The notes: generated by a model from the letters alone, not told the origin. Positions 1,497-64,000 are shown, counted from the stretch's first letter. The stretch: 64,000 nucleotides of DNA from Amoebophrya sp. A120 (GCA_905178155.1 CAJINV010000009.1:3466768-3530767); one strand, 5' to 3'. A program made the numbers and translations.

Positions 1497-4400
1497 ATGT
1501 CGTCCATGATCCAGCCCCCCGTGATGGCGGCGAGCCTGCTGGAGCACGCGCAGCGCGAGATTGTATCAAATGCAAAAATGTCTGGCTCTGAGAGATTGCG
1601 AGACTTGTCATGCTTGTGTGGCATGACCAAAAAGTTTGTAATGCGTGGCCAAGAAGAGACCCTTTTGCTTGTCATGCAGCAACGCAGTTTGTCATGCGAA
1701 AAACGCAACACAAAGAAGCGCAGATATTTCTCGTCATGCTTGGCTGTGCATTACAGAGCATTCACTATTCCCAACGCAGCATTACAAGTTTCCAGACCCA
1801 GACACTTTTGCATTTGATAGATTGAGCTTTTCGCCGATGAAGCTGTGGCGAAGATCAACGACGACATGGTCCAGAAGGAGGGCATATGGATTGCAAAAGT
1901 ATCGTACTCGTATAAATGCATTACAAATTTCCTCACCATGAGAAATAAAATTTGTAATGCAGATTTGCCTTGGGAACAAGATTTGTAATGCAAGACTTGC
2001 ATTTGTACGAGTGCGATACTTTTGCACAGGATAGGGCAAGAAAACGGTGGACACGCTCAACAAGGCGATTCCAGCGTAAGAATTTTTGTTTTTTCTTTTC
2101 TAACCACAACTAGGATACTATGGCATTGTCGTGCATGACGAATGCTTTGCTTTATGCCATGCATGCATGACAAAGCGTAAGCGAATTCATAATCATATTT
2201 CGTAATTCAAAATCTCCAGCTGGCTCGCCATGCTGCTGAAGGAACAGTACGACATTCTGACGACCCGCATGACGCAGGCCTTCTCGCACATGCTACAAGG
2301 GTTGCAGGCGGATCTGCTCGAGTCGGCCAAAGCGGACGACAAACGCATGCGGGATTACGTGCAGAACTTTTTCCAGAAACTTTCCATCGCGGCCGACGTA
2401 CGGCGGCTGAAGACCCAGATGGAACAGGCGCAGTTGGACATCTATGAGAATCTCAGATCGGTTACCTTCTCAACTGTTGCATGAATTTGTCATGCAAAAC
2501 TACCATGATACATCATGAACATGATCATCCACACGATCAAGCTGCTTCGCATGACAAATTTGCAAAGGGCTAAACAGCACCTAAATGATCTGTGCGGAAT
2601 TTGTAATGCTACAGGGGCAGCAACCTCCCCCCTTTGACTTTTGCTATTTTTGCATTACAAATTCGCGTAACTGTTGAGAATCTAAACTGATTTGGGAACG
2701 CCATAACATCCGGAGACTCCAGCAGGACTACGAATCCAATATCAAGAACGGACTGCAGCCCGATGTGGAGAAGGCGGAAATCCAGATTGCGGACTTGATT
2801 TCCATATTCTGAGTAAAAACGTCCCCACCACAGAGTCAAGATGGGGATTTTGCAACACAAACCTTGAAGTTTTGGGAACCACGCATGACAAATTGCAGGC
2901 TGTAGTGTAGTGCAGTTTAGCAAGGGAAGCCGCATCACAAATTCATCTCCTTATCCTGTTTATAGCATTACAAGTTCCAAAACACGATTGGAAATTCTTC
3001 TCGTGGGGATGCGCATGACAAGCGCTCTGGTGCTTGCAGATCTGCATTACAACTCTGGGGTGGGTACGTTTTTACATAGGATATTCCAACGTGAATCGCA
3101 TCGAAAACGACAAGATGGTGGAGGAGGTGCACATATGCATTGCAAAAGTCTGCTCGTACAACTAGTATAAATCGCATGACAAATTGGCTCAGCATTACAA
3201 ATGTAATTTGTAATGCGGATTTCCCTTTATTACTAGATTTGTAATGCATGACTGCGATTACAACTACGAGTGCGATGCTTTTGCATTGGATAGCACAAAT
3301 TGGAGGACAAAATCCTTCTAGAGGGGGAGAAGGTGTTAGACATTGTCGAAACAAAAACGGTCGCTCTGAAAGCGTGGCAACGAGACAAAATGAAGGAGTT
3401 CCAGGACCAAACCACCGACAAAGTGGACAAGTTCGAGGAGAAAGTCGACGTGAAATTGAAAACGTACGAAACTTCGAACAAAAACCAGTGGCTCTGGAAC
3501 GTGCACCAGCACTGCTACGCGGAAGCAGACGCGGAGAAAGACGACCCGGCGAACCTGATCCTGGACTACAGTACCGCCTCGATCAATTCCGCCGGTCCGC
3601 ACCCGCCGCGCTTGGTCCCGAAAACGGTGTTGGCAAAGAAGCAGCAGTATGAGCTCCCAACCGAAACAGTGGCGTTGAAGGAGCACAACGTGTTAACTGA
3701 CACGGGAATCACCCCCACCGAGTTGAACAAACAGCAAGTCCTCTATTCGCAAGATTTCTTCTTCTGCATGGTGCCCAATTGCTACTTGAAACTGATCATC
3801 GGGGAGGAAGTTTGTCACGCGACCGTGGAGGAAAAAAGACAGGCGAGCGCTACGACCTCCACTTCGCAGCCGCGCCGGGTCGTGGGGTGTTACCTGGTCT
3901 TGCAGTTTCCGATATGCATTGCAAATATGTCTGGGTCTGGAAACTTGTGATGCAAGTCCGTGAACAATAAATGCTCTGTAATGCGCCGCCAACCATGACA
4001 AGTTTTTTCGTGCTTGTGTGCTGCGTATTTCGCATGAGAAACTGCGCTTTTGCATCACAGGCAAGCGGGCCTCTTGGTGGCCACGCAATACAGAGTGCAG
4101 AGTCATGCCAGACTAGCATGACAAATCTCGCGATATTCCAGACCCAGACATACTTGCATTTGATATCCGAAGGAGGTGGATTACGAAAGGTCCACGATCC
4201 GTGTCGAGATGAACATGAACGGGCTGCTATCTTGAGTAAAAGCGTCCCTACACCAGAGTCAAGATGCGAAATCCACTATACAAATCCACCAGCTTTGGTT
4301 GTTTCGCATGACAAGTTTGTCATCATAGTGTAATCCTGTTTAGCTAGTTCAGAAGCATCACAGATCCAGCATATCCTGCTGATTCTAGCATCACAACTTC

Positions 4401-62200: not shown

Positions 62201-64000
62201 CATTTTTACATTTTATAAGGTGCTCAGATGAACCACCAGCAACTGATCGAGCAGTACGAGCAGGTAGACGCGCAGGTGATTGACTTGCTATTTTTCACGC
62301 CCAACAACATCATTTCTTCCTCCCAGTTCTCGAGCAGTGGCGGGGGGAACAGCAATGCTGGGAGCAGCAGCTCCGAGGAAGACAGTGTGGCTCATCACCA
62401 CGGGACGACCACAGCCACGAGGTGCCTGTTTCATCATCACCAGGGCAGTACGAGTAGCGGGCCGCTTCGGTATCAAATGCAAAAGTGTCTGGGTCTGGAA
62501 GGCTGCAAGTTTGTCATGCACATTTTGAATGACTCTTGACGTCTGTGATGCATGCTCTAGCATCACAGATTTTGTGAGGGCTTCCTGATGCCTATACCGC
62601 ATGATAAATGCCCTCTCGTCGTGGCAAAAACTGGACCTCTTTTGCTGTTCATGCAATACAGATTTTTCTAGTGTCCAAATGCAGCATCACAAGTTACATC
62701 CTTCCAGACATCCAGGGATATTTGCAATCCATATTCGGGGAACCATGACGATTGAAGAAGTGAAATCCAATACGGGGATCGCGAGCTCCTTCGGAACCAG
62801 CACTGGGGTATCAAATGTAAAAATGTCTGGGTCTGGAAGAGTCCGAACTTGTGATGCTACCTTTGGACTCTACATAAAATCTGTATTGCACGAACAGCAA
62901 AAGAGGTATAATTTGTGCTACGCGGAGAGGGCATTTCTCATGCGGTATGAGCATCAGATTCAGAAAGCCCTCGCAAAATCTCTGATGCTAGGGCATGCAT
63001 CACAGACCTCCTGGGGCATGCAAAATATGCATGACAAACTCCTGCACTCTTCCAGACCCAGACACTTTTGCAATCCATAACGGGGTGGGATGAATAACAA
63101 TGGAGTTGGAACAAGTGCCTCCTCCACGCACGACAGCTCGGCAACCACTTCTGGGAACGAAGATCTTCACGAGAACAAAGAAGTGGACCACGATCAGCAT
63201 GAGCCGTCGCCAACGAGCAACACAAAAATTGCGGTCTACATGGGAGGCAATAGTACTACACAGAATATTACTACTGGCACCACCACTGTAACTACAGGAG
63301 CCACTGCGTCCTCCTCCCGAGGAGGGGTCGGCTCCTGTGCTGTCAACCCGAGTAGTACCAGCAAGCATTTGTTTCAAACCACGCACCAACAGCGTATCCG
63401 GCACCAATCCGCCATTGCCCTGATGCGGGCGGTTTCTGCGCTGCGCAAAGTGGACGAAATTCTGCAGAAGTCGACCATGTTTTGGTCTCATTTAGGCCTG
63501 ACCACGGGACAAGTGTCTCAAATGAAAGACACGCTCACGCTGTGGATCAAGTACGCCAGCAGCATATGAAATGCAAATATGGCTGGGTCTGGAAACTTGT
63601 GATGCTGGTTGGCGAATCAAGAGAACGCCAGAAATGACGGCTCAGCATGACAGGTTTTTGAGTCGCTTGGTGTTGCCTATTCTGCATGAGAAACTGGGTT
63701 TTCGCATGACACAAAAGTCGTGGCGCTTTTGGCTACCTGGCATGACAGAATTGACAGTCATGCTAGCAGAGCATGACAAACCCGGCATTTTTCCAGACCC
63801 AGACATATTTGCAATGCATACAGCAACGAAAAGCTCCGGAAACGACTGCACGAGCGGCTGGAACAGTATCGCATGTTCTGGCTCGATATCCTGTGCAAAG
63901 GTATCGTACTCGTATAGATGCAAGTCTTGCATTACAAATCTTGTTCCCAAGGCAAATCCGCATTACAAATTTTAGTTCTCATGCGGAGGAAATTTGTAAT
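53275..64000 (+). CDS. Ser/Thr protein kinase (CAMK-group-like) with long C-terminal extension; 1 GT-AG intron (53827-54096) plus at least 18 introners; 3'-partial
   Basis: [69 protein letters not shown] and [20 protein letters not shown] appear only after element removal. Confidence 0.93.
54426..54575. mobile_element. Introner family B
   Basis: DR gagca. Confidence 0.9.
54624..54876. mobile_element. Introner family A
   Basis: DR acaac/acaat. Confidence 0.9.
55036..55314. mobile_element. Introner family D
   Basis: DR gtctt; splits kinase DLWSLG motif. Confidence 0.93.
55349..55616. mobile_element. Introner family A
   Basis: DR tgatg; splits MLM/GHYPF. Confidence 0.93.
55662..55987. mobile_element. 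Introner family G
   Basis: DR gttgc. Confidence 0.9.
56034..56183. mobile_element. Introner family B
   Basis: DR tgcaa. Confidence 0.9.
56250..56513. mobile_element. Introner family A
   Basis: DR actaa; splits kinase subdomain XI. Confidence 0.92.
57422..57737. mobile_element. Introner family A with internal ~23-bp tandem duplication
   Basis: DR gcagt; atgtcggtgcggttgttttagca occurs twice. Confidence 0.88.
58436..59645. repeat. GC-rich minisatellite, ~92-bp unit, about 13 copies, each with a strong hairpin
   Basis: CCTAGGCCATGACGCGGGGACCGAGTCCCCGCGCTGGCCTAGG recurs at 58552, 58644, 58736, 58832, 58924, 59016, 59108, 59200, 59292, 59384, 59476; degenerate edge copies. Confidence 0.95.
59702..59967. 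repeat. 11-bp GGGGTRTGTYY tandem repeats followed by three inverted copies
   Basis: ggggtgtgtct/ggggtatgttc array at 59702-59860; gacacacccccgaacatacccccgaacatacccc at 59934-59967. Confidence 0.85.
60195..60476. mobile_element. Introner family A
   Basis: DR aggcg. Confidence 0.9.
61030..61284. mobile_element. Introner family A
   Basis: DR aagga/gagga. Confidence 0.88.
61350..61608. mobile_element. Introner family A
   Basis: DR cgaca. Confidence 0.9.
61674..61892. mobile_element. Introner family H
   Basis: DR gaaca. Confidence 0.88.
61952..62217. mobile_element. Introner family A, close relative of the 25260 copy
   Basis: DR aggtg; internal sequence very similar to 25260-25527. Confidence 0.9.
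62471..62733. mobile_element. Introner family A
   Basis: DR ttcgg. Confidence 0.9.
62809..63079. mobile_element. Introner family A
   Basis: DR tgggg/acggg; frame restored. Confidence 0.87.
63565..63820. mobile_element. Introner family A
   Basis: DR cagca. Confidence 0.9.
63887..64000. mobile_element. Introner family B, truncated by the window end
   Basis: Left end tatcctgtgcaaaggtatcgtactc. Confidence 0.8.

Follow-up and report, generated by a model that had tools for sequence, protein, structure and literature searches.

How does a gene stay readable when its coding sequence is interrupted again and again by insertions that lack GT-AG ends? This question is raised by a 64,000-nt stretch of the Amoebophrya sp. 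A120 genome (GCA_905178155.1, CAJINV010000009.1:3466768-3530767; the window), in which inverted-repeat elements bounded by TAT and ATA lie inside genes. An earlier note, made from the sequence alone, proposed that these elements are precisely removed non-GT-AG introns and that a system reading their end structure takes them out. Here we describe the elements, the evidence for their removal from transcripts and the probable position of the cut, and we weigh which machinery could make it.

Elements and their removal from transcripts

We scanned the window for TAT..ATA pairs with matching arms and selected 52 elements, while 20 shuffled sequences gave 1-7 raw hits each. The excess of elements is well beyond chance. 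The pair at 22032 was dropped from the scan set as a chance match with an arm match of just 13/22, and a 1957-nt element (58122-60078) and a decayed element (46901-47119) were added. This brings the tally to 53 complete elements, with a further one truncated by the window end (63887), in line with the earlier count of about 55. Their lengths are 149-337 nt, plus the single long one of 1957 nt.

The flanking direct repeats (DRs) are 5 bp long. A perfect 5-bp DR was present in 41 of 52 elements, and repeat lengths of 4, 6, 7 and 8 gave 1, 0, 0 and 0. The DR copies of the added element at 46901 agree at 3 of 5 bases, which makes the window tally 41/53. When the search was blind to TAT, we still found it at 97 of 97 true ends. 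Arm positions 11-13 were A at 92, 95 and 99 of 104 ends, which fits TAT followed by seven variable nucleotides and at least three A. The grammar that the earlier note had described, 5-bp DR, TAT, terminal inverted repeat (TIR), second TIR, ATA and 5-bp DR, is therefore common to the 53 elements. Sliding the junction within the repeat can produce GT-AG ends in only 3 of the 53 (21495, 36828 and 61952), so that the note was also right that sliding cannot generally create them; GC-AG is attainable at element 60195. BLAST sorted the 52 elements into 12 groups, seven of them multi-copy, and near full-length copies of 47/52 were found in other loci. Five families split 23 vs 17 by orientation, which means that both strands are used. 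Modelled coding sequence hosts 51 of the 53 elements. The note had placed all but one there, and we count two exceptions: element 46495, which lies upstream of an open reading frame (ORF) and likely in an untranslated region (UTR), and element 52132, whose ORF is uncertain.

Removal of 18 elements, each with 5 nt, and of one GT-AG intron turns gene 1 into a 2286-aa ORF. Any single gene 1 element that is left in introduces a stop codon. In the same way, removal of 17 elements and one GT-AG intron gives a kinase of 1407 aa that is open to the window end. The frame is thus restored in both genes, as had been claimed. However, this does not prove the loss of exactly 5 nt, because +2 and +8 would preserve the frame equally well.

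The loss of the element plus 5 nt is supported by a contig and by protein matches. Record 1 of X1, a 6935-nt contig, is listed as five pieces which skip 1335, 787, 538 and 529 nt. These skips equal the summed element+5 lengths of 5, 3, 2 and 2 elements (12 elements; interval sums, as individual joints are not displayed). The earlier note had proposed just such a check on transcripts, and the contig lacks each of the 12 elements with exactly 5 nt. X1 was labelled RNA by the tool's guess. Its depth is zero over 15457-18791 (3.3 kb), whereas X5 covers all 30 bins and has contigs that cross from exon into element; X1 therefore behaves as RNA and X5 as DNA. The spliced kinase model shares 619 identities with the A25 protein P0001, and near seven element junctions the two agree at 13-19 of 20 residues; kinase exon 1 is 77% identical to the A25 kinase. 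The A25 proteins align gap-free over the element junctions, which would fit an empty ancestral site. The spliced model of SPFH/Band 7 gene 2 equals the A120-labelled protein P0002 letter for letter. We conclude that the elements are almost certainly removed at the RNA level. Ordinary GT-AG introns occur beside them in gene 1, the SPFH genes and the kinase, as the note had stated.

In X8 and X9, RNA runs with the same species label that were compared with 1450-21440, 95 and 9 reads matched, nearly all of them partially and on elements, and none yielded a junction. These reads resemble only element sequence, at 90-95%, and not exons. The pattern suggests that the element families reach another isolate, although Farhat et al. 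2021 in the text covered call the families strain-specific.

The position of the cut

With equal DR copies, six cuts are equivalent, and only unequal copies discriminate between them. We searched metagenome contigs with the end consensus and obtained 162 readable loci (490,704 nt, overlapping; labels L001-L164). They hold 357 distinct elements, 267 of which have a perfect 5-bp DR, so that window and loci together give 308/410. Judging by a Rab stretch that is 100% identical to an A120 protein, the loci come from the same species as the window.

Four sites with unequal copies were informative. At 5208 (GAGAT/GAAAT) the X1 piece restarts at 5520 and not at 5517, which means that the left DR copy is retained through base 3. 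At 4591 the left copy encodes Leu and the right copy His; the closest homologues P0122 and P0123 have Leu, which puts the cut no earlier than DR base 3. For L037, Ala is encoded by the left copy at DR base 4 and is found in 5/5 Rab proteins; a solved-structure check at this site gave nothing. At 38659 the right copy encodes Gly at DR base 5. Gly is present in 4/5 homologues, one being the A120 annotation itself, and P0002 is reproduced only by a cut before DR base 5. Since all four sites fit, we infer a single 1+4 register: the intron would probably start, in a fixed manner, 1 nt ahead of TAT and extend 4 nt beyond ATA, and would be N-TAT...ATA-NNNN. The evidence consists of one RNA contig site and three homology sites.

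The donor of such an intron would resemble that of the host. All 12 modelled GT-AG introns of the window have a GTA donor, and at the 1+4 register N-TAT would agree with it at +2T and +3A. In Table S4 of Farhat et al. 2021 (PMC7789003), 9/9 predominant non-canonical site pairs of A120 start with NT, and those of A25 start with TT, matching TTA ends. In the loci, the TAT-blind end search gave TAT at 592/622 ends, a share that is inflated because the loci were retrieved with a TAT-starting pattern. Of the variant rows, 11 were set aside because they were doubtful or offset artefacts; the other 19 look real, which rules out strict TAT invariance in the loci set. Among these 19, the outermost base was altered in seven 3' ends and in a single 5' end (p ~0.07). 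The 5' variants were TAC (four times), TAG, TGT and CAT; they are mostly TAC, similar to the GTAC donors of the host. These rare variants follow a donor-like degeneracy and, like the inferred donor, point towards a relaxed spliceosome.

An ATA-G acceptor, with the cut after DR base 1, was considered on account of a purine excess in the window and rejected. The excess was gone in 230 oriented loci elements, and sites 5208, 4591 and L037 contradict this cut. In the same 230 elements the DR bases showed no bias, and this also held for +1 and for the final two bases of the intron.

Shared motif, transposon origin and routes of removal

The elements share an internal motif. We counted 177 copies of TGTVATGC in the 13.1 kb of element sequence (51/53 elements) and 5 in 47 kb of DNA from exons and intergenic regions; the intergenic DNA has 2 hits. 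With a relaxed motif, 53 of 122 same-strand gaps were 31-33 nt, or three helical turns, a spacing which suggests a putative DNA-binding repeat for a transposase. The note had called the families sequence-unrelated. This does not hold, because all 12 BLAST groups have the common end grammar and 51/53 elements the common motif, and the families thus form one superfamily. The motif is also present in 8/12 GT-AG introns of the window (10 hits; shuffle mean 0.4, max 3) and in 5/28 predicted GTA introns of the loci (10 hits; shuffle mean 0.7, max 4); an earlier, noisier call of loci introns gave 12/57. The 5/28, though above shuffles, rules out a required intron signal and leaves an enrichment. The GT-AG introns that bear the motif may be converted introners, insertion relics in old introns, or carriers of an optional splicing signal. 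All 12 GT-AG introns were T-rich in the 5' region and mostly A/C-rich in the 3' region, with no polypyrimidine tract.

The elements are likely non-autonomous DNA transposons. They are short, have TIRs, a DR of fixed 5-bp length and no coding capacity, and they occur in both orientations, like MITEs (miniature inverted-repeat transposable elements) and other non-autonomous TIR elements. Copies are up to 98.9% identical (element 43326 vs L012). In the search for a transposase, six long end-pairs contained ORFs of at most 151 aa and viral contigs gave 0 matches. The loci comparison found no orthologous DNA.

The elements are nearly restricted to coding sequence (51/53), and the window has 22 kb of non-coding vs 25 kb of coding DNA. 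Such confinement is not typical of transposons and suggests gene-body targeting. At the inferred register phase 0 is over-represented (28/14/9 in the window; 109/55/66 in the loci, p 2e-5, with loci frames from a codon model), for which a palindromic target preference is one option.

We favour, as somewhat the better supported reading, that these MITE-like introners are removed by one divergent U2-type spliceosome. A trans-acting transposase would bind the TAT-N7-AAA ends and the TGTVATGC repeats spaced by 31-33 nt, and its insertion would leave the 5-bp target duplication. In the resulting N-TAT...ATA-NNNN intron, the donor would retain +2U and +3A of the host GUA with +1 free, and the acceptor, without a consensus, would be positioned by its distance from the element end. 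One duplicated copy would be lost with the element, which would bring back the original coding sequence and make insertion scar-free at any site. Two points count for a U2-type spliceosome. According to Farhat et al. 2021 (PMC7789003, text covered), A120 keeps most of the spliceosomal proteins as well as U2, U4, U5 and U6, although neither U1 nor snRNP27 was detected, and Fritillaria offers a precedent, described below.

The rival idea, which takes up the end-structure reading of the earlier note, is a separate, non-spliceosomal route in which an endonuclease with a ligase, or else a factor that derives from a transposase or binds the TIRs, would read the hairpin and rejoin the exons. Upon folding, 17/18 elements tested formed end-to-end stems with z-scores of -3.0 to -12.4, whereas 12 GT-AG introns folded at -1.3 to +1.1. 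End-pairing of the GT-AG introns as a class was not supported, as 1/12 beat all shuffles. However, any TIR element folds into a stem, and such stems are expected from transposon TIRs regardless. Whichever way a TIR element is oriented, its two ends also read alike as linear sequence, and the splicing of both orientations (23 vs 17) therefore cannot separate structure from sequence. If pairing were selected, G·U should exceed A·C between the arms on the transcribed strand. We found no such excess: the window gave 32 vs 31, and the 230 elements that could be oriented, out of 329 examined, gave 128 vs 129, counts which weak selection could escape. In addition, ~17% of the first 16 arm positions are unpaired. 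Since the two counts hardly differ, reading of RNA structure is not demonstrated. Of the note's interpretation, precise removal as non-GT-AG introns stands, while its end-structure reading or second system is not established by these data; a structure-reading removal system is possible. The lack of an acceptor consensus, the compositional symmetry of the 5' and 3' arms across 20 positions and the 1957-nt element, which is still frame-compatible with an unrelated core, would suit the hairpin route, as would the failure to detect U1 in A120. Against it stand the donor-like terminal variants and the inferred donor, whose +2 and +3 bases are those of the host's GTA. We consider this route unlikely. 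It resembles a proposal for euglenid nonconventional introns, as given in the text covered.

If a spliceosome does the work, its cut could also vary inside the 5-nt repeat by element or molecule, as the duplicated repeat would give an identical mRNA. The variable positions reported by Farhat et al. 2021 (PMC7789003, text covered) agree with this, as do the 28/56 synonymous repeat mismatches and the codon score at base 5, which conflicts with SPFH site 38659. But one register suits all four informative sites, and by our estimate an exonic copy would in any case leave ~40% of the mismatches synonymous. We rate a variable cut as a little less probable still than the hairpin route. Removal at the DNA level, through somatic excision or an element-free contig from another haplotype, is very improbable. 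The RNA status of X1 is a guess, and the joined form is without a cross-run check. Against that, X1 is empty over the 3.3 kb that X5 covers, X5 contigs hold exon-element junctions, and tens of thousands of such introns are RNA-seq validated in the text covered of Farhat et al. 2021 (PMC7789003).

Several observations speak against a fixed-register spliceosomal introner of transposon descent. The register comes from four sites, and the sole RNA one is read from the start of a contig piece, not from a printed joint. The codon-model score prefers the left copy at base 5 in 5/5 non-synonymous cases (2.9 bits in total). The site pairs in Table S4 may stem from an aligner preference within the ambiguous repeat, and Farhat et al. 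2021 (PMC7789003, text covered) describe splice sites as variable relative to the hairpin. At the inferred register, +1 shows no G bias (G in 69/230), a 3' AG is present in 4/53 and a 5' GT in 17/53, so that the ends do not follow GT/GC-AG. The 1-vs-7 asymmetry of the end variants has p ~0.07, and 3/19 strand calls are narrow. Our literature search found no precedent for a spliceosome without any acceptor consensus. The note had suggested looking in the genome for an element that encodes a transposase; none was seen in the window or the 490 kb of loci (0/73 long ORFs), and the 1957-nt element does not carry one either.

Window features and the published record

The coordinates of all features are collected in the table. 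Pfam gave no match for the gene 1 exon tested. The region 36162-40315 holds a tandem pair of genes of the SPFH/Band 7-like type; two elements interrupt each of them, together with two or three GT-AG introns. In the long element at 58122, the insert (58207-60030) is ~1.8 kb long and GC-rich, with ~12 tandem 92-nt units, a G-rich/C-rich inverted pair and no long ORF. End-like motifs without a partner lie at 48817 (score 16.5) and 48512 (11.2) with the internal motif between them at 48672, possibly a relic. An intergenic fold-back element of 1.27 kb (30109-31375) has 108-nt arms that are 91% complementary, with the same perfect 44-nt palindrome in each arm; it sits among GC-rich stretches (27000-27700, 31500-33400) atypical of the window.

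Table. Features of the window (element strand given as '.'; DR, flanking direct repeat; groups from BLAST)
Feature	Position	Strand	Details
gene 1	1497..13087	+	2286 aa after removing 18 elements + 1 GT-AG intron
element	1564..1819	.	260-nt group B, DR GATTG
element	1885..2033	.	150-nt group, DR GGGCA
GT-AG intron	2076..2219	+	contains shared TGTVATGC motif
element	2443..2705	.	TATGGCGTTC group, DR ACATC
element	2805..3083	.	279-nt group, DR TTCCA
element	3134..3292	.	150-nt group, DR GCACA
element	3913..4165	.	260-nt group B, DR TCCGA; not in X1 contig
element	4228..4507	.	279-nt group, unequal DR GCTGC/ACTCC, both differences synonymous
element	4591..4849	.	260-nt group B, unequal DR TCTCG/GCACG
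element	4919..5127	.	singleton in window, DR GATTT
element	5208..5516	.	singleton in window, unequal DR GAGAT/GAAAT
element	5957..6285	.	326-nt group, DR AAGAG
element	6431..6698	.	260-nt group A, DR GATCA
element	6741..6915	.	TATGGCGTTC group, DR GAACG
element	7316..7581	.	260-nt group B, DR GTCCT
element	7836..8097	.	260-nt group A, DR AAAAA
element	8816..9071	.	260-nt group A, DR ATGGC
element	9116..9378	.	260-nt group A, DR CGAAG
element	12768..13028	.	260-nt group A, DR TCCAA
element	21108..21375	.	260-nt group A, DR AAAGA
element	21495..21651	.	150-nt group, DR AGGTA, slides to GT-AG
element	25260..25527	.	260-nt group A, DR CGTCG
element	25629..25965	.	279-nt group, unequal DR AAATG/AAACG, synonymous
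GT-AG intron	28660..28786	+	convergent pair of shared motif
GT-AG intron (modelled)	34123..34208	+	
GT-AG intron (modelled)	34438..34597	+	
element	34642..34803	.	singleton in window, DR GGAAA
GT-AG intron	34866..34984	+	two shared-motif copies
element	35068..35217	.	150-nt group, unequal DR GGAGT/GGAAT, synonymous
SPFH-like gene 1	36162..37940	+	GT-AG introns 36363-36514, 37245-37379
element	36828..37151	.	326-nt group, DR AAAGG, GT-AG at inferred register
element	37405..37638	.	TATGGCGTTC group, DR TCGCG
SPFH/Band 7 gene 2	38356..40315	+	GT-AG introns 39123-39260, 39399-39511, 39925-40073
element	38463..38617	.	150-nt group, DR CAAGC
element	38659..38921	.	260-nt group A, unequal DR CCCGC/CCCGG
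element	39570..39829	.	260-nt group B, DR ACGAA
GT-AG intron	41536..41641	+	contains shared motif
element	43326..43604	.	279-nt group, DR AACGA; 98.9% identical copy in L012
element	43643..43921	.	279-nt group, DR GCGGA
element	46495..46688	.	upstream of ORF (likely UTR), unequal DR TTCTG/GTCGG
decayed element	46901..47119	.	unequal DR CTGCG/CCGTG
element	47204..47477	.	260-nt group B, DR GTCAG
element	48113..48338	.	222-nt pair, unequal DR CACGA/GACGA
element	52132..52337	.	singleton in window, DR GCTGA, uncertain ORF
protein kinase gene	53275..63886	+	>1407 aa; GT-AG intron 53827-54096
element	54426..54575	.	150-nt group, DR GAGCA
element	54624..54876	.	260-nt group B, unequal DR ACAAC/ACAAT, synonymous
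element	55036..55314	.	279-nt group, DR GTCTT
element	55349..55616	.	260-nt group A, DR TGATG
element	55662..55987	.	326-nt group, DR GTTGC
element	56034..56183	.	150-nt group, DR TGCAA
element	56250..56513	.	260-nt group A, DR ACTAA
element	57422..57737	.	260-nt group A, DR GCAGT
element	58122..60078	.	150-nt group with nested insert, DR ACCTC; deletion restores kinase frame
element	60195..60476	.	260-nt group A, DR AGGCG
element	61030..61284	.	260-nt group B, unequal DR AAGGA/GAGGA
element	61350..61608	.	260-nt group B, DR CGACA
element	61674..61892	.	222-nt pair, DR GAACA
element	61952..62217	.	260-nt group A, DR AGGTG, slides to GT-AG
element	62471..62733	.	260-nt group A, DR TTCGG
element	62809..63079	.	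260-nt group A, unequal DR TGGGG/ACGGG
element	63565..63820	.	260-nt group B, DR CAGCA
element, partial	63887..64000	.	150-nt group, ends at window edge

One window exon is 100% identical to the A120-labelled protein P0002, and it is practically certain that the elements are the Amoebophrya A120 introner elements, a class that is already published. In the text covered, A120 is credited by Farhat et al. 2021 (PMC7789003) with 29,850 introner elements that have RNA-seq support, inverted repeats of TAT followed by seven variable positions and three or more A, and border DRs of 3-5 nt (a 5-bp example stands in the legend of Fig. S19); no transposase was found. The link to Amoebophrya introns that the note had drawn is thus confirmed, as genome and TAT end motif are both shared. 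The organism, the TAT+N7+AAA ends, the border DRs, the ~240-nt size, the non-GT-AG ends, the lack of an internal transposase and the GT-AG introns in the same gene all agree. There is no difference in kind: their DR is 3-5 nt and their cut position open, whereas we find a DR of uniformly 5 and infer a fixed 1+4 cut. In the 22 of 58 table rows covered of Gozashti et al. 2025 (PMC12130899), most A120 families are TIR DNA elements of 149-340 nt and many are scored as co-opting splice sites of the insertion site. Automated calls of the target-site duplication (TSD) in these rows give lengths of 2 to 5 with no register resolved, compared with the DR of 5 here. A candidate mobiliser is their family 38, which has TIRs and integrase-like ORFs.

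Related systems differ in their junctions, as far as the sections covered describe them. In Fritillaria borealis, TIR/TSD elements of MITE origin likewise became non-GT-AG introns and are removed by an adapted U2 spliceosome (PMC11282704, PMC13326754). The preferred ends there are AG-AC and AG-AT and the U2AF paralogues are divergent, whereas in A120 an acceptor consensus is absent and U1 was not detected. The euglenid nonconventional introns also have paired ends, TSD-like repeats and non-canonical junctions and occur alongside spliceosomal introns (PMC11282704). They follow a pyrimidine/purine junction rule and have a short conserved stem, in contrast to A120, where we saw no DR base bias and no selection for pairing. 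The introners of Micromonas and Aureococcus are non-autonomous TIR transposons spliced with the use of part of the target duplication, but they retain canonical splice dinucleotides, which only 3/53 of the A120 window elements can form. Rfam, searched for known structured RNAs and self-splicing introns, gave 0 matches at the gathering score.

What we add to the published class is the inferred cut register and the shared internal motif. The literature searched held no paper that fixes the register or names the motif; the main text of Farhat et al. 2021 (PMC7789003) lacks the motif, its figures lay outside the search and may show both, and the sole match to the motif in an Amoebophrya paper was a primer. 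A bolder and rather doubtful possibility is a splicing route that needs no GT, AG or U1 and is guided by the transposon end. Its fixed 1+4 stagger would undo the 5-bp duplication, and a factor would read the TGTVATGC repeats shared with some GT-AG introns. The transposon and its host would then have a licensing arrangement that makes coding insertions scar-free, possibly with non-spliceosomal or transposase-derived machinery.

These results bear on how the ~30,000 published A120 elements are spliced. Unequal DRs let existing RNA-seq data reveal the true cuts cheaply, and with the register and the motif, RNA data that already exist can put the question of mechanism to a direct test. Should the 1+4 register prove valid across the genome, the absence of a splice signature would give way to a single rule in which the donor is N-UAU and the acceptor, free of any consensus, lies 4 nt beyond the element. 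Such a rule, if true, predicts where lariats should be sought and which parts of the spliceosome changed. Loss of SNRNP27K accompanies +4U donors in yeasts, and snRNP27, like U1, was not detected in A120 (PMC7789003, text covered). If true, this would show a spliceosome that abandoned AG recognition and thereby permitted mass intron gain.

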